Shown here piece by piece: positions 7,693-60,910 of a stretch of DNA of 64,000 nucleotides; position 1 is the first letter of the stretch, and each line of letters opens with the position of its first letter. The stretch comes from Octopus vulgaris. Its lineage: Eukaryota. Location of the stretch: the NCBI GenBank assembly GCA_951406725.2, contig OX597825.1:38998001-39062000 (forward strand), written 5' to 3'. Below the pieces are notes generated by a model. It was not told where the DNA came from and did no database searches. It worked only from the letters and a program-made list of their open reading frames with translations. Made by a program: the position numbers and the translations under genes.

Positions 7693-7763
7693 TTAGATGA
7701 GTGAAGGAATCAGAACAATTAGGCGGGCAAGACAGATGAAAATTATATAAAAAACAGAATTAC

Positions 7764-7839
7764 TCACAGACCGGCGGTTTCGTCTATCAACAAAAGAATT
7801 ACTTATATAATCCAATTGTCCGTACACTCGTCAGTGCGA
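7764..7839 (-). ncRNA. Type I hammerhead ribozyme (inverted copy)
   Basis: Reverse complement reads TCGCA-CTGACGA-GTGTA...TAGAC-GAAACCGCCGGTC-TGTGA; one stem II mismatch. Confidence 0.8.
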
Positions 7840-8306
7840 TCGTTTCAACAGGTAGTGTAATTTGAAAAACTAATCCCAGCTTTCTGTGCCAAAACAGACA
7901 CATGTTTAGTTTTACCGATTACATTAGGGATAATTTCAAATGTTTTAGTTCTGGCGCGCTAAAAATTCCGGAAGCGAAGGACTGCTGTAAATAATTTACT
8001 GCAGTTAATGCTGCCTATTAGAGAACATATTTATTTTAATATTTAAATAATGAGGGAGATAAATTAATATTAATTTAATTAAAATCAATTTAAAACCAGT
8101 AGCCTAGTATTAAAAAAATCTGAAAAATCAGAGAAAATTCTAATACATGTGTATATTCAAAGGGCAAGACCAAGGTAGTCGGCCGTATGCTAGAAATAGA
8201 TCACATTTGAAATTATCCCTAATGTAATCGGTAAAACTGAACACGTGTCTGTTTTGGCACAGAAAACTGGGGTTAGTTTTTCAAATTACATTACCTGTCG
8301 GAACGA

Positions 8307-8382
8307 TCGCACTGACGAGTCTACGGACAATTGGATTATATAAGTAATTCATTTGTTGATAGACGAAACCGCCGGTCTGTGA
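8307..8382 (+). ncRNA. Type I hammerhead ribozyme with intact core and extended stem II
   Basis: Stem I TCGCA/TGTGA; core CTGACGA; stem II GTCTA..GACAA..GGATTA/TAATTC..TTGTT..TAGAC; GAAA; stem III ACCG/CGGT; GTC cleavage triplet ending at 8377. Confidence 0.88.
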
Positions 8383-8535
8383 GTAATTCTGTTTTTTTAT
8401 ATAATCTTCATCTGTCTTGCCCGCCTAATTGTTCTGGTGTCCGCTGAATTTCCTCTAGAGAACATTCTTTGTAGTTTGATCGTTGGTGATCTATTTCTTG
8501 CATACGGCCGACTAACAAGTGGTCTTGCCCTTTGA

Positions 8536-8933: not shown

Positions 8934-9321
8934 CACTTTACTCTTTACTCTTTTACTTGTTTCAGTCATTCGACTGCGGCCATGCCGGAGCACCGCCTTT
9001 AGTCGAGCAAATCGACCCCGGGACTTATTCTTTGTAAGCCCAGTACTTATTCTATCGGTCTCTTTTGCCGAACCGCTATGTGACGGGACGTAAAAACACC
9101 AGCATCGGTTGTCAAGCAATGCTAGGGGGACAAACACAGACACACAAACACACACACCCATACATATATATTCATATATACGACAGGCTTCTTTCAGTTT
9201 CCGTCTACCAAATCCACTCACAAGGCATTGGTCGGCCCGGGGCTATAGCAGAAGACACTTGCCCAAGATGCCATGCAGTGGGACTGAACCCGGAACCATG
9301 TGGTTGGTTAGCAAGCTACTT
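8934..9321 (-). mobile_element. OK-type SINE, B box, body and tail (head separated by the Tx1 insertion)
   Basis: Colinear with the intact copy at 50452-50900; tail ends in GAGTAAA repeats. Confidence 0.92.
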
Positions 9322-9552
9322 TATTTCATATAATTTGCCATTTAGGCATTTACAAAGAGGGGACAAACAAAGACAGACAAATATAAAGGGTGAAGTAGCT
9401 TAACACAGTTAAAATTTTCGAATAAAATTACGGATAAGATTATAAACAATGAGTTTTACGAAGACAATGTTTAAAAATATTATTAATGATCATGTCGAAG
9501 GACGGACACCCAGCCATCCGGGTTGAACCTTTACTTTTTGATCTGGTCACAC

Positions 9553-12500
9553 TTACCTTGTGCCAAACATACCCAACTTGCATGCCACAGGCTTCCATCT
9601 TTTCACAAACATATCTCGTGACAGACACATCTTCTCCAGCCTGATTTTGCTACTGAGGTGGTAACTAAAAAAGTTAATCAACCCCTGGCCGGAGACAAAG
9701 GTGCCTGTCACTATACCTTTCGTACGCGTCTTCCATACTGTTTCTACACAGAAAAAACAAGCCTTTCTTTCCCTGTTAAGGAAAGGAGGCGGCACAATCT
9801 CGATGATAGACTCAGCTGTACTCTTCCCATCACTGACAACAGTTGTTCAGCAAAAGCTATCAGTCCCGATAACTCCGGACACTCCGCGAATGCGTGCAAG
9901 ACGGTCTCCCTATCCTGCTCACATCGCGGGCATCTCGGCGAGACGGCACTTCCGTGCCTTGACAGCTTGTCGCGAACAGGTAAAGCGGCACGGAAACACT
10001 GCCAGGCCAGGGATTTCTGATAATTATCCAGATACCCCGGCCCGAACGTCCTCCGGAACAGGTTGACCAACTGATTTTCATCGTAGCCCAGGGTCTCCCC
10101 CAAGGCGTCTTCGGACTTAACCTCCACTAACCCGCTATAGACATCCGTGGTGGAACTCCTGTTGCCGGCGTTGCCCGCCCGAGAGAGTAGCTGGAGCGCC
10201 TGACGGCACTCCAAATGCCATTCACTCAGTTTAGTTCTCCGCTTGATCCATGCACCGATGTCCGTTAGGGATGTTAACTGGGGAAGGTAGAACCGGACGT
10301 GTGGTGACCACACCTGCTCTCCATCCAGGTAAAGCCAGAGGTGCCTCAACCTTAACGCGAGTTTTCGCATCCTCAGCCAAGGCATCCCTAGCCCACCCTT
10401 TAGCGGTTTCTGGCAGCAGACAGAGCGCTTTACAAGTGGCTTTCCTCCTTTCCACAAAAATCGGAAAAGGATTCTCTCCAACTTGTTCAACCACAAATCG
10501 GGGAAAGGCACCACGGTCAGACGGTAGGTGATTACTGATGCTATAAACATCTGCACCACCTCCGCCTTCCCTAGCAGGGGTAACGCCCGCCCAGACCAGG
10601 TCTGGGTTTGAGCGGTCACCTTGTTGGCCACCTCACTCCAATTTTTCTCAATCTGGAGGTCTGGCCCGAACCAGACTCCAAGCAGCTTAACAGGACCTTC
10701 AATCCAACGCCCTACGACGTTATTGGACGGCATCGGCTTGCCCCTCCAGGTGCCGAGTTGCAAACCGACCGACTTGTCCTTGTTAACCTTTGCTCCTGCC
10801 ACAGCCTCGTAGCTTTTGATGGCCTCTTCCACCACTGGAAGCTGGCCTTCGTCTGCCACGCTGATGGAGGTGTCATCCGCATACGCCGTAGCTCCTCTTC
10901 CACACCCCTAGTGCTTCCTAGTGCCTCCAACTTCCGCAGCAAAGGCTCAAGAGCCAATACGTAAAGGAGCGAGGACAGGGGACACCCTTGACGAACTGAA
11001 CGCTCGATCCTGAACGGCTTCGAAAAGAAACCGTTCATCCTGACTACAGACTCGATGTCGTTATACAAAGCAGCGATCCAACCTCGAAAGGTCGGGCCTA
11101 GGCCAGCCTCTCCGAGGACCGCCGCCAAGTACCGATGGTCGACCCTATCAAATGCTTTGGACTGGTCTAAATGTACCAGTGCTCCCCCTGCGCCAGAAAG
11201 CTTCCCCACCCTCTCTAAGGAGTAGCGTATAAGGTGGAGATTGTCGTGGATCGTTCTGCCAGGGATAGCGCACGTTTGCGCTTCCCCGACAAGTTTGTCC
11301 ACGGCCCGCGCCAACATTTTTGCTAGCACCTTGGCCAGAATCTTTAACTCTGTGTTCAACAGAGTTATGGGCCTGAAGTTCCCTCTTTCGTCCCCCTTGA
11401 TCGGGTCCTTCCTGATCAACGTCAGCACCCCCCGGCTCGCAGACTTGGGAATTCTCCCATTCTGCTGCCAGTTGGCGTAGGCGCTAGCCAGCAGGTGCCC
11501 GAACAAGTCTGGCATACTTTTATAAAATTCATAGGGCAGACCATCGAGACCCGGCGACTTCTCCCCGGGACACTTGCCCAACACCTCGATTAATTCCCCG
11601 GCTGTGATTGGCCCTTCACAGCACTCAGCCTCCCGTGTTGAGAGGCGCGGGCCACCAGACAGGAAGTCTCTAAGGGCCTCATCATGATCCAGCTTCCCGC
11701 ACCTCCCGAACAACTCGGCGAATTGCTTGTGAAGTGCCTCACACATCTCGTCCCGCTTCTTGATCGTGCATCCGTTTTCATCAACAAGAGACCCAATTGT
11801 GGCATCGCTGCCCACGCTGTGTTTCTATCGTACGGGCCCATCCGGCGACATTAATTCCCTCACGGCCCAATGCTCGTACTTTAACCCGAACTCTACATCC
11901 CTCATGTTTGGTTTTGAGGTGACGGTCCAATGCCGTTCTCGCCGCTAAAATGTGAGATGCAGAGCCCAACCTCAATTCCCTCCTCTAAGTTCTTAACTAG
12001 TTGCCCTTCTATTCTAGCCCTATCTAGTCTTAGTTGTTTACTAAATCTAATGGACTCGAATCGAATGGCTCTTTTGAGGGCGAACCACCACCGGTTATTT
12101 AACACGGCTCCGGTTAACGCCCTCTGCACAAACCCCTTAATCCGGTTACGGTATGCCTCGCGAGTCACAATAGACTTGTTCAGCTTCCAGTAGCCGGTTC
12201 CTATCTTAAGTGTGCTATCTATGTCCAGTCTACACTTGACCATTCTATGGCCAGTATAGGGCAACTGGACGAGCTGTGGACAACTAAAACTAGACTTATC
12301 TCTAGTTCTTATCACTATCCTGTCTAGATAAGACTTGAACCTTCCGTCGCCACTCACCCAGGTCCACTCTGGGACGTTCGGATGGTCAAGTCTGTAACGA
12401 TCTGCCAACTGAAACCGCTTAAGCAGATCCACGAGACGTGAGTTCACTTTCCTATAGATCGAGCCAACGCTATCGATGTGTACGTCAACGATAGCATTAA

Positions 12501-12924
12501 AGTCCCCTAATATCACTAAAGTCTTCGACGTCACGAGAAAGCCCTCTAGGCGCCGATAAAAGTCAGTTTGGAAATCTCTAGCACAAGGTGCATAGAGTCC
12601 GATCAACCTGAAGGCCTTACTGCTGTATGTCACATCAAGGACGACCAGCCCACCTTCTGGGTCTACATAGACTGTACTTGTCTGCAGAGCCAAGTCTTTA
12701 CGGATCAGTACCACTACACCCCCTCGCCCTCCGGTCTGGCCAGGAGACATGATTTTCTCGTAGCCATTCAGGAGAGGCGAGAAGGTTTGTAGGCTGTCCA
12801 GCTTGGTCTCTGTAGCAACCATCACATGTATATCATGTGATCTGAGGTCGTCGAGGAAACAAGCCTGCTTCCACTTCAAACTCAAACCACGCACATTTAA
12901 ACAACCAAGGTTAAGAGAAGCCAT
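9553..12924 (-). pseudogene. Tx1 ORF2 (APE endonuclease, reverse transcriptase, zinc finger), frameshifted
   Basis: LNVRGL, LGDFNA, SYLDRI, GYWKLN, KSPGLDGLPYEFY, NFRPITLLN, LDQSKAFDRVDH, VRQGCPLS, AYADD near 10870-10888, GGLG, CPRC..ETVLHAFAEC; spread over ORFs 11902-12924, 10712-11815, 9744-10859 and 9553-9795. Confidence 0.92.
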
Positions 12925-13201
12925 TACAAAAAGTAAAAGTTCTACTTACATTTCGTTTGGGAGGTTGGGGCCGACCTCACCACACATTTGTGGGCCCCTG
13001 CTTTCTCCTCCTTCTTCAGATAGTCCGGCAAGTTCGCGATATGCCGGATGGCGTTTGGTTGTCTGTCTTTTAATTGTTTGAACGTTGTTTCCGCAATCCA
13101 CACACATCTCTCGTTTCGATCTTTGTATTTGTTGTACAGTCTTGCTGTGTGATGCGGAACCACAATATCGTTTATGCATTTGTTTTGCGTGTCATATTCA
13201 A

Positions 13202-14374
13202 TTAATATGAGTTCATTTTTTTGTCTTCTTTTTCTGGGCCAGTTGAGCGGGATTTTTTTTTTCGTGTCTGTGGTGTGTCTTTGTTTTTATTATTTTTTGT
13301 AGGGCATGTGGACGGGGATGATGCACGAATTCTTTTACGAACTGTTGTAAATCCCCCCTCTGATACCTCCATGGTATCGTCTGGGGTAGCAATAGTTTGT
13401 TCAGTAGGCGCCGCAGTTTTTAAGGGGGTGGGAGGTTTTAATAATGTAGGGGTTTGTGAGTGCGAGGGCTGGGTTTTTTCTTCAGTTTGTTTTGGGGTTG
13501 GCACCGTAACAGCAGGAGTGCGACTTTTTGTTTTTGTAGGGGTAGGTGAGTTTGCAAGGGTAGGGATTTTTTTATTATCTGAGGGGCCTGGTGTCTGCGG
13601 TTTCTTTTGCTTGTCTGGACAGTCTACACGAATGTGGCCCTTTTTGCCGCAGGCGTAACAGGTGGGTTTTCGGCCTTCGACCTGTACCCTGAGGGCCACG
13701 TTCTCACCCACGAGCACCCTCTCAGGAAGGAGCTGCAGGTCCTCCGGTGTTCCTTGAATTATTATATTAATGTCTCACCCAAGCCAATATAGAGGGGCAG
13801 AGCATGTTACCTGTATTATTTTAATTTTGTCCGTCATTTTATATAACAGAGCGGCCACTACCTGTACCGGATCTACTTCCGGCGGTGCTTCTGCAATCCT
13901 GACCCGGGACGTCCTGCGTCCCCTATAGCTTGGGAAAAGTACCACCTCCTTGGTTTTTAGGGGATTCACAGAATGCCCGCGGGCCACCTCTTCCCCCGAG
14001 AAGCGGACATCCACAGTGCCATATGCCCGTCCCCTGGCAACGAACACAATGTCCTTCCAAATCGGGGACAGGTATTTCTCGATAGTATTTTTTTCAAAGT
14101 GTTTGAACCTTCTGCTTTGTGGACAGGTTTTAAACACTACGGTCCGCTTCCCGGTCTCCACGATACTACCGGAGGGTGATATTTTAACATCACCACCCTC
14201 CTCTTTCATTCTTTTAAATAGCTCGACGAGCTGATTGACATTGATGTCAATGTTCTCGGTAGCCACTGCGGCTACCGCAGAAAACTTTTTACTACAGTTA
14301 ACATTGTTCTCCTCAAGAGCACTATTTTCGTGAATAATCTCAATAGACATTATTCTGTTGAAATTAGACAACAA
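13202..14374 (-). pseudogene. Tx1 ORF1 (gag-like with CCHC knuckle), frameshifted
   Basis: ORFs 13775-14374 and 13202-13717; CYACGKKGHIRVDC followed by a Pro/Thr-rich region and GGFTTVRKR. Confidence 0.85.
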
Positions 14375-14749
14375 AAAAATTACGAATATTGGTTTCCCAC
14401 AAAACTAGGAAACCTATAGAAAGTTTTTCTTCCAAAGCAGTTCAATGAGTGGTAAAAAGCAGTTCAAAAATTTCAATTCCCGCCCCCATTCTGGGGAGGG
14501 GCACGAGAATAGTCTGGCAAGACTATATATAGTCACGTAGATAAAAAAAGCCACAGTGGCTAACAGTTCAACAGTAACAAATTATCCAATTATTCCCCGG
14601 TAAAACCGGAGAACAAGACAGTTAAACAACGTTCAAAAACAAATTTTCAGTAGTAAAATTCAACAATTAACAACACAGCAAAACTCTTACCGGGAAGAAA
14701 ACGCGGCCAAACCGTAGTAAGGTAAGCAAAGTCACTCTTGAGTCAGTGA

Positions 14750-14787
14750 GGTTAGCAAGCTACTTACCACACAGCCACTCCTGCGCC

Positions 14788-20975: not shown

Positions 20976-23900
20976 TGATTTTACTTCACGAATGCTTTTT
21001 AGCCACTGCCATTTGGTGAATGAGAGAGTTCGATGCAGCTGCCCTCATCTGCACCTCCTGCCGTGAAGTTGGTTTATCTGGGACACCTGACAGGAAGAGA
21101 TCCAGTTTTATTTTAAATACATCTGCATCCACACCATGCAGGTCTCTCAGGTTCTTCGGGAGGTTATTGAAGAGCTGTGGGCCTCTGAAGCCCAGGCTAT
21201 CACAGTATCTTGTCCTACATCTTGATGGCAAATTTGGAGTCCTTGGCACCATGCAGTGGCACCCAGTTCTGGCATTTGTGTAACTCTTGATGCCAAAGTT
21301 TGGGACAAGTCCTTCTAGGATCTTCAAGATGTATATTATGGCATATCTTTCTCGCCTACGCTCTAAGGAATAGAGTCTTAATCTCTTGAGTCTTTCCCAG
21401 TAGCTTATGTGCTGCACAGAGGCTAGGCTATCTTCTTCGTGTAGCTTCGTTGGATCGCATCAAGTTCTGTGATTAACTTGACACTGGATGGTGACCATAG
21501 CTGAGAGCAATAGTCAAAGTGGCTTAGGACAAGTGTCCTCCAGAGGACCATCATGGTTTCCTGGTCTCTTGTTCTAAAGGTTCTAAGAATCCATCCGGTC
21601 AGCCGCCTACATTTCATTGCCAATTTAGCAACATGCACATGAAAGATTGCATCATAACTCATGTAAATACCCAGGTCTCGCACTGATTGTGTCTCTGAGA
21701 TTGCAGTCCCTCCATGTCCATTGTATTTATTGGGTATTGCATTTAGTTTTGCATGCTGATAGCATAAAGCTTCAAACTTTTCAGCATTGAACTGCATGCT
21801 ATTCTTTTCAGCCCACTTGTATATTTTGTCCAGCTCACATTGCAGGTGCTTAGTGTCTTCAGGGTTCTGTATTGCCTGTGAAACTTTTGTATCATCTGCA
21901 TAACTTGTGATCATGGCTCTCTGCGTGGCTGAGGGCATGTCTGAGAGGGGCATTAGGAACAGTAGTGGTCCCAAAACAGTACCTTGCGGAACACCGCTCA
22001 CTATTTGCGTGTTAATGGAAATGGCCGCATTGGCTACTACCACCCGACTTCTATCCTTCAGAAAGTCATGAAGCCATTCTCCCAATTTTCCAACTATGCC
22101 AAGATCACGCAGTTTATGACATATCATTCCATGATCGACTTTATCAAAGGCCTTTGCAAAGTCGAGATATATGACTTCCACATTTGAGTGGTTCAGCAGT
22201 CGTTTCAGCACCCAGTCAAAGTGATGTAGGAGCTGAGTTAAGCAGCTTCTTCCTGGTCGGAAACCATGTTGGGTGTCGGGCAGCAAGTTATTTTCTTCAA
22301 GGAAGGTGATTAGTCTCCTTCTGACTATTCGTTCTATGACCTTGCTGATTTGTGAGGTCAGAGAGATAGGTCTGTAGTTCTTGGCCTCCGCTCTGCTACC
22401 TCCTTTATGAATAGGGCATATTTTACTTTCCTTCAGATTTCTTGGAAGTTTGCCAGTTGCAAGGAAGCTCTGAAAGGGGACTCTGCAGTGGTCTTGCTAG
22501 GACTCCCTCACATACTTTTAGAAGGATTGCTGAGAATCCATCGGGGCCAGTAGCTGAGTTTGTTTTCATTTCATCTATAGCCTTTATTACATCATCTTGC
22601 TTTATATTGATGTAATCAATCATCACTGCCTCTGATTTTATATCTGCAGTGGTAAAGAAGTCAGTTAGATTTCTAACTTGAAAATACTCTTGAATTGCTC
22701 ATTTAGTATTTCACTTATCCTCATTGGATTTCCTGTGAGTGTGCCATCCTTTTCAAGGAGTGGCCCTATCTTACAGTGCACCGTAGCTGTTTCTTTGGCA
22801 TACCTGTAGAAAGCTCTGGGGTTAGATTTTATGTTGTCTATAGCCCAGGCTTCTTTGTCTGCTCTTTCTATTTCATGAGAGAGTTCCAGACATTTTTCAA
22901 TTTCCAACAGTTTTATTTTCAGGCGGGACTTTTTACTGCTTTCAATTTGTTTGTTTAAGCGATTTGAAACTTTTGTACGCCGTCTCATTAGAATTTTCCT
23001 CTCTCTGGGGATTTTGTTCTTGTGTACAGTGGCCTTTCTCTCTGGGACACATTTGTAACATATGGCTTGCATTACAGACATGAATTGTTGAAGTTTCATG
23101 TCGATGTCTGGCGAGGAGAGATATTCAGGCCAGTTTTGTTTGAGGATCTCTTTCTCAATTTGTTTCCAGTTTGCCTTATGGAAGTTCAAGCTGGAAAGAT
23201 TCTGGGAGTTTCTTGTAGGCTGCATGTCCATGCTTTCCTTTGGTCCGTACATGGTCAGCTCTACCATGTTGTGATCCGAGAGTAGTGTCGAGATCCATAT
23301 TATTTGTGAAGCAGAGATCCAGTATGTTACCTGCCCTGGTTGGTTGGAGCATTACTTGCTCCATGTACAGAGTGTTGATGAGGTTCAGGAGGGACCTCGC
23401 CTGTCCTCGTTCACATCGTGTCATTCCTGGGAGAGAAAGGCCTTCGGGCCATCTGACATTGGGTAGATTGATGTCTCCTATAAGAAGTACACTTATGTGT
23501 TGTTCTAATGTGACTAGACCTTTTTCTATTTTTATAAGGCAGTCTTCAAACTTCCCTACATGGCTTGGGGCATCTGGAGGGCGATATGTAGCACATATAA
23601 CTACACCAAGTTAACTAATATGTACAATTAGTGTGTCACACAGCGAATTTGAGTATGACAAAAGGACCTGGGGTGTGAGGTCCTCGCGGATTTACATAGC
23701 AACTCCTCCATGACTCCTTTCTTTTCTGTCGGTCCGTAGTACAACATACTGTGGTATGTGTATTTCCGCATCTGCTATGTCCGGTTTCAGGTGTGTTTCC
23801 GTAAGTGCTATGCATAAGGCTTAATTGCATGCAACAATGTCTCTCAAGAACGGGATTTTTGTCCTGTTACTGAGTGTTAGCAGTCCTCTGATGTTCAGTA

Positions 23901-26324: not shown

Positions 26325-27975
26325 ATATATACCCCTCCATCGATGTAGACTTTGCTGTCGATAAATGTATAGAAATAGTTAGTGAGAGTAGTATGATATT
26401 TAAGAATGTGGATGTATATGAACTAGGGTTCTTCCTGGCCCTGACGTGTACCAATGAATAGCTATCGCACAATAACCTTCTGTATTCTTGTCCCACTCGT
26501 AACAAACGAGGTAGACCACCTAACATTACCTCAGCATACAGGAAGACTCACAGTGAGCCCTGGCAGGGATGGACGAAGCCGGACTACCCACCTTCAAGTG
26601 CACACGACATTAGAACCACCATCGCACATTCTATCGGTGTCAGCCTGAGAATTACACTTAAAACACATATTTTTCAGTTTGTCAACATACTGTATAAGCA
26701 TACGATAGGCGGTGCTAATGGAGTAGGGATCGCCGGTGACGTTGCAAACCTCTTCATGGTATGGTGGGACAAACATTTTAAACTGCCTAGCAAACCGTAA
26801 CATCCACTTGCCTATGTACTCTCGTTACGACGACATTGACATTGACCTTGTCGTGAAATGTTATAATACAGACACAGTTATGGGCCCTCTACCAAGTGAA
26901 GAACAAGTGATGACATCTAGTACAACACATAGCTGACTCTATCCACAGCAGTATAAAAGTTACCATAGACTACCCCTCTAAACACCCCAGTAAACGATTA
27001 CCCGTCCTAGATACTGAGCTATGGATAGAAGATGCTATTGTTAATGGAACCATTAAACCCTGTATACTCCACCCACACTATCAGAAACCGATGGCTAATC
27101 CACTAGTAATCCGTAGTGACTCAGCTATGTCGAATACTGCCAAACTCAACATCCTAGTGGCAGACTTAATTAGAGTAATGTGGAATGTATCACCACTATG
27201 CCAACCAAAAGAACGACAACAACACATCCAGCACTACATATTCCGAATGCAACGCTCCGGAGACACACACGACGATAGAGTCAGAGTGTACAAGAGAGCG
27301 AAAGCAAGATTCGAACGCATTCTAAGGGACGACGAAAACGGTATATTCCCCCTATACCGCAACAAGTTCTGGAATAGTTTAGAGATGGACACCAACAAAA
27401 GGATGAGAAACGATACTTGGTATGATAACAGGAAATTTCACGAAGTAATGTTCCTTGACGCCACACCTAAGAACGAGCAAAGTAAGGCATTCAAAAAATC
27501 CTGCGCACTACTGGCCTTAAAATCAAAATTGTAGAAAAGACAGGTAGGACTATCAAATCGGCATTATGCAGATCATATCCATTTGATAGAATCACCCGTC
27601 AAAGTAATTGTGCAGTATGTTCGACAAACCCACATGTAAACTGCAAAACCAAGGGCACTGTATACCAAATTGAGTGCCAAGAAGGGGCTTGCGCGACTAA
27701 CCTAGAGTCATGCATAGGTGAGACGTCTGGGAGTATCAAGGATAAATTCAAAGAACACATGGAAAACTACATTGAAAGGAAGCCAAACTCCATCTTCTAC
27801 CAACATGCTGTAGACTGTCACAAGGGATCCTTAGGGAAACTTAAGTTAAACATCCTATCAACACATCCCACCGATGCAATGTTGAGACAGGTCACAGAAG
27901 CTGTTTGTATACAAGAATACAGACCTACTCTCAACCGAAAATCCGAATGGAGTAACATCCAGATCCCATTCGGGA
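26325..27975 (+). mobile_element. Naiad-like PLE, degenerate copy 2 (RT to GIY-YIG)
   Basis: YPSIDVD, GVGIAGDVANLFMVWWD, YSRYDDI, DYPSKH..RLPVLDTELW, AKLNILVADLIRVM, TVYQIEC..IGETS, AMLRQVTEAVCI..LNRKSEW. Confidence 0.9.
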
Positions 27976-28526
27976 GGACCATTCTACAACCACCCCTCTC
28001 TCTCTCGTTTACATGTAATCCTTACATACATGTTGCAATGCGTGGTGCTAAGACACTTATGTGCAGTTGTATATAACCGTATGAACGTACGTTGTTTGAT
28101 ACGTATGTGCGTGTGTGGTGCTATAAAAAAATGCACATGCGTGCACATATGAGCATGTATGGATGTATGTATGTATTGTATATGTGTGCGTTTATGCATA
28201 TATATAAAAAAAGAGCCCATAGGTTAATATAATCCATGTTCGATTTTTAACCGTTGTCCTTGTATACTGTGTCGTATTTTGTATGTATGTGTGTGTGTGT
28301 GCGTGTGTGTGTGCGTGGGTGTGTGTGTATGTGTGTAATAGGTCATATGTATATAGAAGTGGATAAGAATATATGAGTATATAATTTAAGATTATATGTA
28401 TATTTATGAGTGTGTCTATATGATTGTGTGTACTTGCGTATATGCATATGGTTATAGGTGCACAGTTGCACCTGAACGTTGTATCCATTCATAGTTAGAC
28501 GATGATGAGAGGAACAAACACACACC

Positions 28527-31149: not shown

Positions 31150-31383
31150 TATTTCTTTACTACTCACAAGGGGCTAAACACAGAGGGGACAAACAAGGAC
31201 AGACAAAGGGAATAAGTCGATTACATCGACCCCAGTGTGTTACTGGTACTTAATTTATCGACCCCGAAAGGATGAAAGGTAAAGTCGACCTCGGCGGAAT
31301 TTGTACTTCGAACGTAACGACAGACGAAATACGGCTACGCATTTTGCCTGGCGTGCTAACGTTTCTGCCAACTCGCCGCCTTA
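31150..31383 (-). mobile_element. OR-type (Meta-domain-like) tRNA-derived SINE with a Tx1-like 3' tail
   Basis: Reverse complement AAGGCGGCGAGTTGGCAGAA..CCTTTCATCCTTTCGGGGTCGATAAATTAAGTACCAG..TTTGTCTGTCCTTGTTTGTCCCCTCTGTGT..GAAATA; possible TSD CATACATATATA at 31138-31149 and 31386-31397. Confidence 0.85.
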
Positions 31384-53436: not shown

Positions 53437-53631
53437 TGAATTATCCTAGGTGAATGAATTATCCTAGCATGGAAAATTCGTTTAACCGATACCTGGGTAG
53501 CAAATTCACGTCAGAAAACACGGTTGACGTGACCTGTCAAGGGTAGAAACTCCGGATTCTTGTGTGGAAATTTGTGTGTTTTTTATGTATGAATAAATGA
53601 AAGAATGGAGTCGAACGAAATGTTAACAAAA

Positions 53632-53728
53632 TTCCTTTACTCTCGACACATGTTTCGAAGACGGCATACTTTTAATCCGAAGGAATAAAGGGTGCATTAT
53701 GCAATCTTCTCATCAGGAAAGATAAGGA
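53632..53728 (-). ncRNA. Type I hammerhead ribozyme, intact core
   Basis: CCTTATCTTTC-CTGATGA-GAAGAT...GTCTTC-GAAACATGTGTC-GAGAGTAAAGG. Confidence 0.88.
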
Positions 53729-54273
53729 GCCTCTCTCAGTCACAAGACAAACAAAAAATTTTAATGATTGCCTACATGGTGACCACAGTGATAACGGGTG
53801 TTTTTTATGTGTGTGTATGAATGTGTGTATATAACTGCATTTGTGTGTTTGTGTGTGTGAGATATATGTTATATATTCCATTGCTACTAAATATCTTTGA
53901 CGTATGTTTCTCTCTCTCTCTCTATCACACACACAATCAAACACACAGACACAAATATTTCACCTTACTACTACGTAAATTTGACGTTTGTCTATCTCAA
54001 ACACACAATCACACACACACACACAGACGCAGTTATATACACACATTCATACACACACATAAACACTTGCACTCATTAACACAAGCACACACCTGTACAT
54101 CCCCATACGTACAGCATACATAATGTCCCCTACCTATTTTTACTACTTCCTCCTTTTACCCAATTTTGACGTCAATGCTTATAACGGATTTTTAAAAAAA
54201 ACACCCATTATCACTGTGGTCACCATGTAGGCAATCATCATAATTTTCTGTTCGTCTTGTGACTGAGAGAGGC

Positions 54274-54370
54274 TCCTTATCATTCCTGATGAGAAGATTG
54301 CATAATGCACCCTTTATTCCTTCGGATTAAAAGTATGCCGTCTTCGAAATATGTGTCCAGAGTAAAGGAA
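54274..54370 (+). ncRNA. Type I hammerhead ribozyme in the 5' pLTR
   Basis: CTGATGA-GAAGAT...GTCTTC-GAAATATGTGTC; stem I has point mismatches. Confidence 0.8.
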
Positions 54371-54612
54371 TTTTGTTAACATCTTCGTTCGACTCCATTC
54401 TTTCATTTATTCAAATATAAAAAATACACAAATTTCCACACAAGAACCCGGAGTTTCTACCCTTGACAGGTCGATTCAACCGTGTTTTCTGACGTGAATT
54501 TGCTACCCAGGTATCGGTTAACCGAATTCTCCATTCTAGGATAATTCATTCACCTACTTAAATATTCTTATACAGTTTCCCTGACAACCTGCTAACTTAA
54601 CCGATCCCGCAA

Positions 54613-57201
54613 ATGGAGTTGTTCGATATTAACGCCTCCCTTAAGGACATCCCTATACCACCAAAAGAAGCCTTCCTTAAGGAAATTATTAACAAGACAT
54701 TTGCATTTATCATCCGCATCAGATTGCTCGCCTTCTTCCACGATAATGAGGACCTAAAACGGACCAGTAACGACGTCTCCCTTTCATATAAAAAACTATT
54801 TAAGTCGAGGGGAACTCCTCCACCTAATCCTAGACTGAAGAATTTCGAATATGATCTTTGGGACATCGTAAGGAATATTAAATTTCATAAATCACCCCTC
54901 AGGAATAAACACCTCAAATACCTCGATAAAGTCTCTAGAGATATAAACTGATTAGACTTTATCCTGGTCCAATCGATAAAACCGGGAACATATATAAGCT
55001 TGCCAAGAGCCATTATTTAGAACTGCTCAAAAGGGAGATACATAAGAATTACAGGACCACCAGTAGGAATACGCTCAGACAGGCCAACTTAGAAACTAAG
55101 AAGATTATGGAGACTTAGGGATTACAAATGAAGACGAAACCGTTGAACCCCAGACAACCAAGATTCATCTTAAAGGACCACTAACAGAACTTTCATACCA
55201 ACCCAGCATTGCGACTCATATGCCCTTCCAGTTCAGACATCGGTACCCTTAGTAAATGCATATTAGATAAGAATATACCTATATTAATTGATAAATTAAA
55301 ACTTAACTTATGGTCCAACTCTGCTCAAGTCGTAGATTGGTTTACTTCTATTACCGATAAGGCCAACACTAAATTTATACAATTCGATAAATCAAGTTTC
55401 TACCCGTCAATCAACTCTAGTGTACTTAATAAGGCCCTATGGCATGCACACAATAAAGCAGGCCTCTCCAGGGAGGAAATTTATGTGATAATAACAGCTA
55501 GAAAATCTTTCATACAGTTCGATAGCAAGTTGTGGGTCTGTAGAGACACCCCTAACGCCTTTGATGTACTAATGGGAAGTACAGACAGCGCCCAGATAGC
55601 CGATTTGGTCGGAATTTATATTCTCTACGAAATGGCCGACCAATTTCCGGACATCTGTGGAGGTCTGTATCGCGACGATTGTCTGCTTTACCTCCAGAAA
55701 GCTTCAAACCAAAAAATACAGAAGGTTAAGAACAGATTAGTTAGGTTTTTTTAGTAGAATGGGCTTGAGCATAGATTTTGACGATGAGTTAACTAAAGCC
55801 AACTTCTTAGACATTACCCTCAATCTGCAGAATAACTCATACTTCCCTTATCATAAACCTTCTACTAATCTTAAGTATATCAGCATTTTCAGTAATCATG
55901 CCAAGCCAATTACCGATAATTTAGTTAAAAACATATCTCTGAGACTGTCAAAATTATCAGCTAACGTCGACATCTTTAACCAAAAAGCGGAAATCTATAA
56001 CGCCGCCTTGTCAAGAGCCGGTTATAAGGAAAAAGTATCATACATCGACCCAGCTCATTTTAAACCAGCATCTGCTTCTCAAGATAGGAAAGCTACTCGT
56101 AATAAAAATAATGATTTCAATTCTAATAGGGCCAGCACCCCTGTACATAAGATAAATTTTTTACGGACTAGGGGAGGTAAGCGCCAAACAACCCCAAATT
56201 TCCAACACGGAAATTTTCCCCTTACTGTCACAAATAACACTAGGAACAATTCAAAGTCCACAAAAAACTATATCTGGTTTGTAGTACCTTTCGGTAAACA
56301 AATTAAATCGAACCTTCCCTTACAGTTCTGTGAAGCCGTTGCTAGGAACTTTCACAGTAATTCTAGATATCATTCTATTATCAATTCACACACGGTAAGA
56401 ATTGCATTTTCTAACACTAGGAATCTTTCACAAATTATTTCTTCCCATAATAACAAGCTACTAAACAAAGATTCTTCACCCGGGAGTTCCAACACTAAAC
56501 TTACCAATTCCAACCCATCATACAATCACAATAATAGAAATAGTATTGATAGTAACAGCATTCGTAGCAGCGATAGTGTTAGCAATGATAATATTTATAA
56601 TAGTATTAGTCGGGTTAATAACAATGGTAGTGTTGATGGTAACGACAACAACGGTACTCTTGTCGGAGATATTGCAGGTTGTAGTTCAATTAATAATAAA
56701 AATAATAATAGAAATAGTGTAATTGTTAACGCTATTAGTAATAAAAACAACAATCATAACAATAAAAACTCCGTCTCGATCTTGGAGGAAAACCCTAACA
56801 GATTAAAATTTTTGGCCAGTAATTCCAAAATTAAGAATTCCATTTACCAGTGTAGAATTTCTTCCGGTACCGATGACTTCTTCTATATAGGTGCGACCAC
56901 TTCTCAGTTATCAAAGAGAATTTCCAATCATTATTCGACTTTCCGAGATAAGAAAAAACGACATAGTACAGGGCTAAGCAAATTAGATTGGCGTCTTAAA
57001 GACAACAATATAACTTTCAAGTTGAATTGGTTCATCTTGTCTGTATCCTTTCCTTTTGATAAGAGCAGAAAATGTTGTAACATTTGTAATTCTAAACTCT
57101 TCTATATTCTTTTCGCCAAGGTTCCCCTAGTAAACACACTCATAGAAAGATCGTACAAATGTAAACATTGGCAGAAACACACTTTCCACTCATATAAATG
57201 A
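54613..57201 (+). pseudogene. PLE RT and GIY-YIG polyprotein with a few stops and frameshifts
   Basis: SLKDIPIP, FIQFDKSSFYPSI, FDVLMGSTDSAQIADLVG, GLYRDDCL, NFLDITLNL, IYQC..YIGAT..RISNH..STGLSK..CNIC..CKH. Confidence 0.92.
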
Positions 57202-57722
57202 TAAAGATAACCACTGTAGTTTTAACAATTAGCTTCATGTCCACACCACTGCCATAGACAAATTCTTTCCTATTCTTCCCTATGCCTTCGAACATTCCTT
57301 TATTCAGCGTTTACTTCCTCCTCCATACCTATTGCTCCGTTATATGTTCCATTGCTACTAAATATCTTTGACGTATGTTTCTCTCTCTCTCTATCACACA
57401 CACAATCAAACACACAGACACAAATATTTCACCTTACTACTACGTATATTTGACGTTTGTCTATCTCAAACGCGCAATCACACACACACACAGACACACA
57501 GAGAGACGCAAATGCAGTTATATACACACTTTCATACACACACATAAACACTTGCACTCATTAACACAAGCACATGCCTGCACATCCCCATACGTACAGC
57601 ATACATATTGTCCCCTACCTATTTTTACTACTTCCTCCTTCTACCCAATTTTGATGTCAATGCTAATAACGGATTTAAAAAAAAACACCCGTTATCACTG
57701 TGGTTACCATGTAGGCAATCAT

Positions 57723-57818
57723 CCTTATCTTTCCTGAAGAGAAGATTGCATAATGCACCCTTTATTACTTCGTAATAAAAGTATCCCGTCTTCGAAACAT
57801 GTGTCGAGAGTAAAGGAA
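57723..57818 (+). ncRNA. Type I hammerhead ribozyme in the 3' pLTR, intact core
   Basis: CCTTATCTTTC-CTGAAGA-GAAGAT...GTCTTC-GAAACATGTGTC-GAGAGTAAAGG. Confidence 0.88.
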
Positions 57819-57857
57819 TTTTGTTAACATCTTCGTTCGACTCCATTCTTTCATTTA

Positions 57858-57918
<61 letters not shown>

Positions 57919-57975
57919 TATTATATATATATATATAAATGAAAGAATGGAGTCGAACGACGATTTTTAACAACA

Positions 57976-58063
57976 TTCCTTTACTCTCGACATATGTGCA
58001 TATTCTTCATTCCGAAGGAATGAAGAGTGCATTATGCCGCCTTCTCAGCAGGAAAGACAAGGA
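57976..58063 (-). ncRNA. Disabled hammerhead (CTGCTGA core, GTCTTCGAAA deleted)
   Basis: Comparison with 60812-60910. Confidence 0.6.
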
Positions 58064-60811
58064 ACCTATGTCAGCATCATGACGAACAAAAACATTTAGA
58101 TGACTGCCCACATGGTGTCCACAGTGATAATGAGTGTTTCTTTAACACATTCCGTTATAAGCAATGACGTCAAAATTGGTTGGATGGAGAAGGTTCTAAA
58201 AAGTTCAAGAGTTCAAATTTGGTTGGAAGGAGAAAGTTCTAAGAATAGGAAGGTGACAAAGTGCAAGTTGTATGTATGGTGATACGTGGGTGTTTGCTTT
58301 TGTTAATGAGTTTGAGTGTTTATGTGTGTGTATGTATATAACTGCATTCTTGTCTGTGTGTGTGTGTGCGTGATTGTGTGTGTGGGGCGACAAATGTCAA
58401 ATACATTTAGTAGTGAGGTGATAAATTTGTGTATGTTTGTTTGATTGTGCGTATGATAGAGAGAGAGAGATGGGGGGAGAAATAGAGAGAAAGAGGTAAA
58501 CTTACCCCAACGAAATATAGTAGTAGTTCTTCATGTAACGGTGTAGAAAAAATGGATTTGTCTAGGGGGGTGTTGTAGAAGTGGAACTAAATTATTAAAA
58601 TCAAAGAGATTATCTATATTAATCATCATTCATATGAGTGGAAGGTATGCTTCTGCCAATGCTTACACTTATAGGATTTTTCTATTTTTGTGTTTACCAA
58701 GGGAACTTGGAGAAAAGGATATAGAAGTGTTCGGAATTACAAATAGAATACAGAAGATTAAGAACAGATTAGCTAGATTCTTTAGGAGAATGGGCTTGAG
58801 CACAGTTTTCGACGATGAATTAACTTAAAAGCCAACTTCTTAGACATTACCCTAAATCTGCAGAATAAGTCATACTTCCCTTATCATAAACCTTCTACTA
58901 ATCTTAAATATATCAGCATTTTCAGTAACCATGCCAAAACAATTACCGATAATTTAGTTAAAAACTTTTCTTTAAAACTGTCAAAATTATCTGCTAATGT
59001 CGACATCTTTAACCAGAAAGCGGAATTTTATAACGCCGCCTGGTCCAAAGCCGGTTATAGAGAAAAAGTATCATACACCGACCCGGCCCATTCTAAACCA
59101 ATATATGCTTCCCAGGATAAGAAAACCAATAAGAATAGAAATAGTGAGAAAAATGATTTCAGCTCTAACAACGTCGGCACCCCTGTACATAAGAAAAATA
59201 ATTTACGGACCAGGGGAGGCAGTCGACAACCAACCCCAATTTACCAGCACAGAAATCTTTCCTTTAATGTAACTGGTAGCGCTATGAGCAATTCTAAGTC
59301 CAGAAAAAACTATATCTGGTTTGTCATACCTTTCGGAAATAAAATCAAATCAAACCTTCTTTTACAGTTCCGTGAAGCCGTAGCTAGGAACTTTCCCAAG
59401 AATTCTAGGTATTACTCTACTATCAATTCGCATAAGGTAAGGATTGAATTCTCTAACACTAGAAATCTTTCGCAAATTAGTGCCTCCAATAATAACAAGC
59501 TGCTAAACAAAGATTCTTCACCCGGTAGTTTCAACACTACTCCTACAAATTCCAACCAAACATACAATAATAATAATAGAAATAGTATTGATAATAGCAA
59601 CATTCGTAACAGCGTTAGTATTAACAATGTTAATATTAATAATAATATTAGTTGGATTAATAACAGTGGTAGTGTTGATGCTAACAACGACAGCATTTCT
59701 ATAGTCAGGGATATTGCCGGCGATAGTACAATTAATAATAATAATAATAATAACAATAATAGAAATAGTATAGTGGTCAATGCTAGCAATAATATTTACA
59801 GCAATCATAACAATGAAAACTCTAGGAAAACCCTAACAGATTAAAGTTCTTGTCCAGTAATTCAAAAATTAGAAATTCCTTTTACCAGTGTAAAATTTCT
59901 TCCGGTACCGATGTCTTCTTCTATATTGGTGCGGCAGCTTCTAGATTGTCCCAGAGAATTTCCAATCATTATTCAACTTTCCGAGATAGGAGAAAACAAC
60001 AAAGTACAGGACTAAGTAAATTAGTTTGGCGTCTTAAGGGCGGCAATATAGCTTTCAAGCTGGATTGGTCCAGATTGTCTGTATCCTGTCCTTTTTATAA
60101 GAACAGGAAATATTGTGGCATTTGTAATTCCGAACTCTTCTATATCCTTTTCGACAAGTTCTCCTTGGTAAACACAATAATAGAAAAATCCTATAAGTGC
60201 AAGCATTGGCAGAAGCACACCTTCCACTCATATGAATGATGATTAATATAGATAACCTCTTTGATTTTAATAATTTAGTTCCACTTCTACAACACCGCCA
60301 TAGACAAATAATTTTTTTCTACTCCGTTACATGAAGAACTACTACTATATTTCGTTGGGGTATGTTTACCTCTTTCTCTCTACTTCTACCTCTCTCTCTC
60401 TATATATATATATATATATCATACGCACAATCAAACAAACAGACACAAATTTATCACCTCACTACTAAATGTATTTGACATTTGTCCCCCACACACTCAA
60501 TCACGCACACACACACACACGGACACGAATGCAGTTATATACATACACACACATAGACACTCAAACTCATTAACAAAAGCAAACACCCACACATCCCCAT
60601 ACATACAACTTGCACTTTGTCACCTTCCTATTCTTAGAACTTTCTCCTTCCAACCAAATTTGAACTCTTGAACTTTTTAGAACCTTCTCCATCCAACCAA
60701 TTTTGACGTCATTGCTTATAACGGAATATTTTAAAGAAACACTCATTATCACTGTGGACACCATGTGGGCAGTCATCTAAATGTTTTTGTTCGTCATGAT
60801 ACTGACTTAGG

Positions 60812-60910
60812 TTCCTTGTCTTTCTTGCTGAGAAGGCGGCATAATGCACCCTTTATTCCTTCGGAATGAAGAATATGCAGTCTTCGAAACATATGTCGAG
60901 AGTAAAGGAA
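60812..60910 (+). ncRNA. Hammerhead with mutated core (TTGCTGA)
   Basis: CTTTC-TTGCTGA-GAAGGC...GTCTTC-GAAACATATGTC-GAGAG. Confidence 0.7.

Follow-up and report, generated by a model that had tools for sequence, protein, structure and literature searches.

Our data suggest that SINE B, which has 106,845 exact tails in the 2.8-Gb octopus genome that we searched, carries a tail that belongs to a Tx1-like lineage of octopod LINEs, several sister families of which probably copied it. The LINE family represented in the window (the whole 64,000-nt stretch of Octopus vulgaris DNA analysed here, contig OX597825.1) would account for ~0.01% of the copies. It is a bystander that targets another element, SINE A, rather than the driver of SINE B. 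The lineage has a common tail, fixed ends without poly(A) and family-specific targets, and SINE B insertions occur at two of these targets. A preliminary description of the window had proposed that a tail-recognising Tx1 drives a SINE; the constrained, lineage-wide tail on SINE B agrees with this, and the role given to the window family does not.

Structure of the window LINE

The window contains a full-length Tx1-like non-LTR retrotransposon of the L1 superfamily (9322–14749, minus strand; 5428 nt), ~95% identical to the intact copies L473, L475 and L476. Its ORF1 region (13202–14350, minus strand, bounds approximate) is interrupted by a stop in the window copy and encodes a zinc knuckle (PF00098; E = 8.6e-06, Pfam). 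A zinc-knuckle ORF1 is a feature of the Tx1 clade. ORF2 (9553–12924, minus strand) is frameshifted and lies in several pieces in the window copy, and other copies of the family have intact ORF2 frames of 1140–1150 aa. Pfam detected endonuclease (APE), reverse transcriptase (RT) and zf-RVT domains. This combination of an ORF1 with an APE/RT ORF2 nearest to L1 places the element in the L1 superfamily. For an intact family copy, the nearest solved relative was human L1 ORF2p (E = 4e-67), with R2 at E = 8e-20. Based on architecture and site specificity, the clade is likely Tx1. The named homologues came from Octopus sinensis and Argonauta, and no named Tx1 reference was among the homologues listed; the RT tree was a quick tree whose rows were octopod and unnamed sequences only. 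One close homologue (P0003) is deposited under the name of a bacterial metagenome-assembled genome and likely reflects host contamination.

Insertion of the window family into SINE A

We observed that the window LINE interrupts the tRNA-like head of SINE A, which the preliminary description had not mentioned. The 5′ part of this head lies at 14750–14787 and the remainder of the host, with its CORE-like motif, at 8941–9321 (3′ bound approximate). The insertion is flanked by a perfect 16-bp target-site duplication (5′ copy, 14750–14765; 3′ copy, 9306–9321; all on the minus strand). The first 30 copies fetched from the genome had an identical end base followed by an identical site. Parsing succeeded for 78 of 80 loci and gave 65 unique copies, all of them at one SINE A nucleotide; because the parser required the site motif, this count is no independent test of the site. 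By the script's test, 60 of the 65 ran on into SINE A and 5 into other sequence, some of which resembled the 5′ end of another element. The two loci missed by the parser were L141, which is at the site, and L188, which lacks the terminus.

The same 16-bp duplication as in the window flanked four full-length copies with intact ORF2. Three 5′-truncated copies (L006, L011 and L017) had the SINE A head upstream, and two of these (L011 and L017) had a copy-specific variant of the duplication on both sides. The presence of such a variant on both sides of the LINE indicates that SINE A is the target, not cargo. Even subfamilies merely 76–88% identical to the window copy were still site-locked. The window family thus shows sequence-specific insertion with target-site duplication, as described for the Tx1 clade. 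In some family copies (L020/L145, L147 and L182), the duplication was followed by sequence resembling another element's 5′ end, possibly reflecting stacking at the SINE A site.

Identity of SINE A and SINE B

SINE B in the window is 233 nt long (31150–31382, minus strand) and ends in a Tx1-type tail. It is surrounded by a TA-rich tract, and a 12-bp duplication may flank it. OR1 and OR2 are named as octopus CORE-SINEs (PMC4824008, PMC4758252), and a CCTTGGG-type motif is given for CORE/Ceph domains (PMC5786205). SINE A resembles OR1/OR2 in having a tRNA-like head and the CORE-like motif CTTGGGCAAG, which is related to CCTTGGG; this likeness is one of head and motif. SINE B differs from OR1/OR2 in that it lacks the CCTTGGG motif of the CORE domain. 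The label "OR-type", previously attached to the tail-sharing SINE, would therefore fit the host SINE A better. ARAGORN and Rfam gave nothing for a tRNA-related head in SINE B, for which "tRNA-like" is a by-eye reading. An assignment of SINE B to the Meta domain was dropped, as no sequence match was present in the MetaSINE supplement files searched.

The preliminary description had suggested comparing duplication lengths and target motifs between LINE and SINE. Among the 30 SINE B copies most like that in the window, 19 carried duplications of 9–22 bp, similar in length to the 16 bp of the LINEs; the target sites are compared below. Sampled SINE B copies were 89% identical, which makes SINE B older than the young LINE families. 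Strongly 5′-truncated SINE B copies with duplications were also present (L080, L286 and L317), one of them a 10-nt tail at the SINE B site.

The 3′ tail shared by the window LINE and SINE B

A pyrimidine-rich block of the LINE (9352–9381, minus strand) matched SINE B (31178–31207) at 28 of 30 nt. This reproduced the count first reported and exceeded the best matches (19–22/30) obtained when the window was simulated 40 times with a third-order Markov model. One of the two mismatches occurs in the window copy only, and most other copies of the LINE accordingly reach 29 of 30 nt. As described earlier, the block lies at a similar distance from an identical GAAATA terminus in both elements (30 nt in the LINE, 28 nt in SINE B), and poly(A) is absent from both. 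The terminus of the LINE (9322–9327, minus strand) had the same final base in 30/30 copies. The small hairpin reported around TAAAT also held up on folding: TGCC-TAAAT-GGCA (9336–9348, minus strand; 4-bp stem, 5-nt loop) was present in the predicted fold (z = −2.0), and it covaries across sister families. The SINE B tail (31150–31207, minus strand) comprises the block, a hairpin at the equivalent place (31162–31174) and GAAATA. The SINE B hairpin is of the form GCCC-5-nt loop-GGGY, with the stem broken in the window copy by a private G>A change, and was non-significant by folding energy alone (z about 0).

The block could have been a SINE remnant captured by this one LINE copy, as the preliminary description had noted. 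We found that the whole 399-nt 3′ query was covered at ≥96% in 40/40 scored copies (the best 40 of 807 candidates), so the block is not a remnant captured by the window copy. The tail was also kept in 30/30 of the top copies selected by protein, and 19 of 20 older family copies had a recognisable block and terminus. In 19 older copies, identity to a young copy was 88% in the block and 82% in the last 30 nt, against 69% elsewhere in the UTR; this set leaves out two young rows and one that lacks the terminus. These data support a tail that is fixed and under constraint in the window family and, together with the sister families below, in the whole octopod lineage.

Within the window, the SINE B tail matched no other LINE clade. 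A second, unrelated RT-bearing LINE fragment (20986–23351, minus strand) had a 3′ region without a match to this tail. The middle of SINE A (9126–9148) matched the Tx1 block at 21 of 23 nt beside a TG-rich tract, which may reflect either the ancient capture of a tail or a chance similarity of low-complexity sequence. A 45-nt minisatellite made of the Tx1/SINE tail block was present at L268/L269.

A tail common to the sister families

Sister families recovered by protein and DNA searches lie in (ATT)n or (CT)n tracts or have varied insertion sites. All of them end with a C/T-rich block, a short hairpin and a GAAAT(A) or A-rich terminus, and poly(A) is absent. Over 18 tails, 87.5% of the cells of the 4-bp helix were paired, with 14 two-sided changes; the tails were hand-picked and the counts ignore relatedness. 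The observed pairing was reached by 0/500 shuffles, slid controls gave 21–53%, and RNAalifold predicted the same helix unaided. The conserved stem-loop expected of a stringent SINE/LINE pair is thus evident from covariation and weak by energy alone.

The SINE B tail matched 17 LINE tails at 39–48 of 58 nt (best families, 45–48/58), compared to 31 ± 2.6 in shuffled controls (maximum 40; 510 shuffles). The two halves of the tail had different best partners. Its proximal 26 nt were identical (26/26) in the window family and the L193 group, whereas its distal 32 nt matched other sister families at 29/32 and the window family at only 19/32. The preliminary description had named a better match of the SINE tail to a different LINE clade as refuting its view. 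No such match was seen among the other clades in the window, but sister families match the distal half better (29/32 and, in the family Tx1-B described below, 31/35). The window family and the L193 group were sisters in the tree (support 99), and families with a SINE-like hairpin formed a second clade (support 100). The (ATT)n family fell outside both clades and also has a hairpin similar to that of SINE B. Because its two halves match different subclades, the SINE B tail is likely ancestral or recombined, combining the proximal block of the window subclade with the hairpin of the other subclade.

Pattern searches for a LINE that ends in the whole SINE B tail were negative (50 of 157, 30 of 30 and 30 of 234 matches examined). 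Six of the matches in the fully examined set carried LINE-type tails with a different hairpin, and the matches examined in the other two sets included no LINE. The protein- and DNA-seeded searches returned many sister families and none with both halves of the SINE B tail. Homology of the 3′ ends is thus present at the level of the lineage, without a single full-length donor.

Several sister families have features of their own. A young family with an intact 1145-aa ORF2 lies in (ATT)n (L091–L120; C50, C47 and C4 near 93.8 Mb) and forms head-to-tail arrays with a period of about 5.87 kb. In another, which encodes a 1138-aa ORF2 (L191–L209), (CT)n tracts follow the element, as in Kibi. Further sister families (L121–L128; L223, L225, L226, L228 and L230; L215 and L220) are followed by recurring non-SINE sequences, which suggests more specific targets.

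Insertion sites of SINE B and the family Tx1-B

If a carrier is site-specific, its passengers are expected at the site that it targets, as argued for SINEU (PMC4494074), so we counted SINE B sites per family. Exact SINE B tails lay at the SINE A site of the window family in 11 of 106,845 cases (0.01%). In 10 of these 11 copies the SINE A head was directly upstream, mostly with an 11–17-bp duplication. A looser control at 11 neighbouring positions gave 3 matches, one of them a clean insertion. Because the 11 insertions are far above local background, occasional cross-mobilisation is likely, with the window family or its older subfamilies copying ~0.01% of SINE B. The 30 SINE B copies closest to that in the window all lay outside the SINE A site. 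SINE B therefore does not share its target with the window family in the manner of a stringent pair.

In contrast, 27,810 of the 106,845 exact tails (26%) were followed by position 49 of SINE B itself. Many of these junctions lie in arrays of 184-nt units, so that insertions are overcounted; the arrays could grow by duplication or from read-through templates. A junction search at this SINE B site (30 of 54 matches examined) identified full-length SINE B in SINE B with a 16-bp duplication (L342 and L347). It also yielded one LINE-like 5′ end, which defines the family Tx1-B.

We observed that 29 of 30 Tx1-B 5′ ends were at the SINE B head site; of 20 copies fetched, 16 also had the corresponding 3′ junction. 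Tx1-B is about 5.35 kb long, two copies have an intact 1134-aa ORF2, and this ORF2 is 59% identical to that of the window family. Tx1-B and a SINE B variant agree at 31 of the last 35 nt, and the proximal block is absent from Tx1-B. Only 66 candidate 5′ ends were present, and Tx1-B, at 97.5% pairwise identity, is younger than the SINE B sample. SINE B shares its target with Tx1-B, with the arrays inflating the number of shared junctions.

The flank started with GGTA in 19 of 30 dispersed SINE B copies. Among window-like copies it started with ATATA or ATATT in 22 of 29, and the window copy belongs to this TA-start class. In a relaxed-target sister of the window family, the flank of 9 among 23 copies started with ATAT, and most of the duplications found measured 15–18 bp. 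From this we infer that the relaxed-target sister group is a candidate carrier for the TA-start class.

SINE B also joins itself recurrently near position 17 of its head (L065, L079, L307, L442 and L388), and one Tx1-B copy lies close to this position as well. At the self-junction with position 49 (for example L440), the terminus and the sequence that follows are nearly palindromic (GAAATA versus TATTTC). A read-through RNA could fold back on itself at this junction.

The 3′ UTR of the window family contains a 9-nt stretch complementary to the first 9 nt of its own target (9393–9401, minus strand; ~80 nt from the end), which lies upstream of the block common to SINE B. The complement was matched in 1 of 200 shuffles. 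At least 6 nt of it were kept in 45 of 47 family loci, whereas none of 8 other families tested had more than 6 nt. No target-complementary motif was found in the last 240 nt of Tx1-B. The motif may contribute to the poor use of SINE B by the window family.

Discussion

Relaxed template choice by way of poly(A) is usually exemplified by the L1-type elements of animals. Our data suggest that an abundant animal SINE has a Tx1-type tail, which would extend stringent recognition to a Tx1-like lineage and name a carrier lineage for a major repeat of the octopus genome. By analogy with stringent LINEs (PMC3747384), the ORF2 protein would bind the block and hairpin of the tail. Reverse transcription would start at the fixed GAAAT(A) end without copying poly(A), and the endonuclease of each family would set the landing site. 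Tx1-B would be one main carrier, nicking the SINE B head at positions 48/49–64, where 26% of exact tails are found. Relaxed-target sister families would be the main carriers of the dispersed copies, including the TA-start class. The lack of a LINE with the complete tail, the overcount from arrays, the low number and young age of Tx1-B copies, the missing proximal block of Tx1-B, the weak energy of the SINE hairpin and covariation counts from hand-picked tails that ignore relatedness all count against copying by several families, which we nonetheless consider probable.

Some of these observations would be expected if one extinct or unsampled Tx1-like family with the exact SINE B tail had driven nearly all copies. 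Tx1-B would then merely have adopted a SINE head as its target, and the self-junctions would mostly reflect array growth or pairing of read-through RNA at the nick. No sampled family matches both tail halves, SINE B is older than the young families, long unit arrays exist, and the GGTA flank starts of dispersed copies are expected from read-through masters. However, insertions of SINE B in SINE B use the two boundaries of Tx1-B, with its 16-bp duplication, and SINE B occurs at the exact site of the window family far above background, which indicates that more than one family can take it. We regard a single lost driver as unlikely, although it deserves serious weight. That the window family itself recognises its own tail and drives a SINE B subfamily, as first proposed, appears very improbable. 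Its proximal block is identical to that of SINE B, nearly all SINE B copies at its site have the SINE A head directly upstream, most with a duplication, and its older subfamilies might once have been less specific. Yet the share of SINE B at its site is minute and includes none of the most window-like copies, its distal tail matches poorly, and even its divergent subfamilies are site-locked.

The block might also have passed from a SINE to the LINE, or have arisen by low-complexity coincidence. It is pyrimidine-rich and has the weaker match inside SINE A, but the tail type recurs, with covariation, in all of the sister families examined over the tree, and chance gives at most 22/30. The lineage-wide distribution rules out capture of a remnant, and we consider this pair of explanations extremely improbable as a whole. 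Returning to copying by several families, we give about even weight to a broader model. Here the RNAs of an animal Tx1-like radiation are recognised by a hairpin tail that lacks poly(A), the endonucleases diverge to different targets, and a SINE of >100,000 copies rides several of the families at once, its own head serving as the target of one carrier. A short UTR motif may explain the rare use of the SINE by the window family. If this is true, the passenger SINE B builds the target of its driver, and counts of insertion sites measure the trans-preference of each family directly from the genome (26% versus 0.01%). Single-nucleotide targets and naturally intact ORF2 copies make tail recognition and target choice separable family by family.

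The closest known system is crocodilian Tx1-Mar, which likely moves SINEU, judged by their shared target (Kojima 2015, PMC4494074). In both systems Tx1 families insert into another transposon, and a shared target links SINEs to them. SINEU heads derive from U1/U2 snRNA and the target is Mariner, whereas in octopus the structured tail is shared by a SINE whose head reads as tRNA-like by eye; for SINEU-1, no LINE with a shared 3′ terminus is reported in the accessible text (PMC4494074). Unlike in Tx1-Mar/SINEU, the octopus targets are SINE heads, one of them belonging to the passenger SINE B itself. The sequence-specific Tx1 clade includes Tx1 in Tx1D, Keno in U2, Kibi in (TC)n and Koshi in (TTC)n (PMC4494074). 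The octopus families resemble these in being APE-type L1-superfamily elements with family-specific targets, including the sisters in (CT)n and (ATT)n, and differ in that a tRNA-SINE head is not among the targets named in the available part of that paper.

Stringent SINE/LINE pairs with a shared 3′ stem-loop are described for L2, CR1 and RTE (PMC3747384). Pairs from the L1 clade are ZmSINE2/3 with LINE1-1_ZM and SINEX-3_CR with L1-1_CR; the 2013 survey covers 58 SINE/LINE pairs, three of them with L1 tails, found in maize/sorghum and a green alga. Neither a Tx1 pair nor an L1-clade pair from an animal is in its table (PMC3747384). The octopus case resembles stringent pairs in its shared 3′ end, its hairpin with compensatory changes and a tail conserved above the rest, and differs in that the tail is common to a whole radiation, not to one partner. 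Neither a Tx1-tailed tRNA SINE nor a Tx1 that targets a SINE head was described in the literature searched, and repeat databases may already annotate these families. No such pair appeared in the accessible portions of PMC4824008, PMC4758252, PMC5786205, PMC10294476, PMC13282606, PMC5753468 and PMC5381603; the supplements of PMC13282606 may annotate the families.

Other features in the window

Open frames at 442–1158, 26914–28076 and 55185–59844 resembled Penelope-type remnants by eye. Long inverted repeats with 92–96% complementarity were present at 57997–60879, 7749–8397 and 53620–54382.
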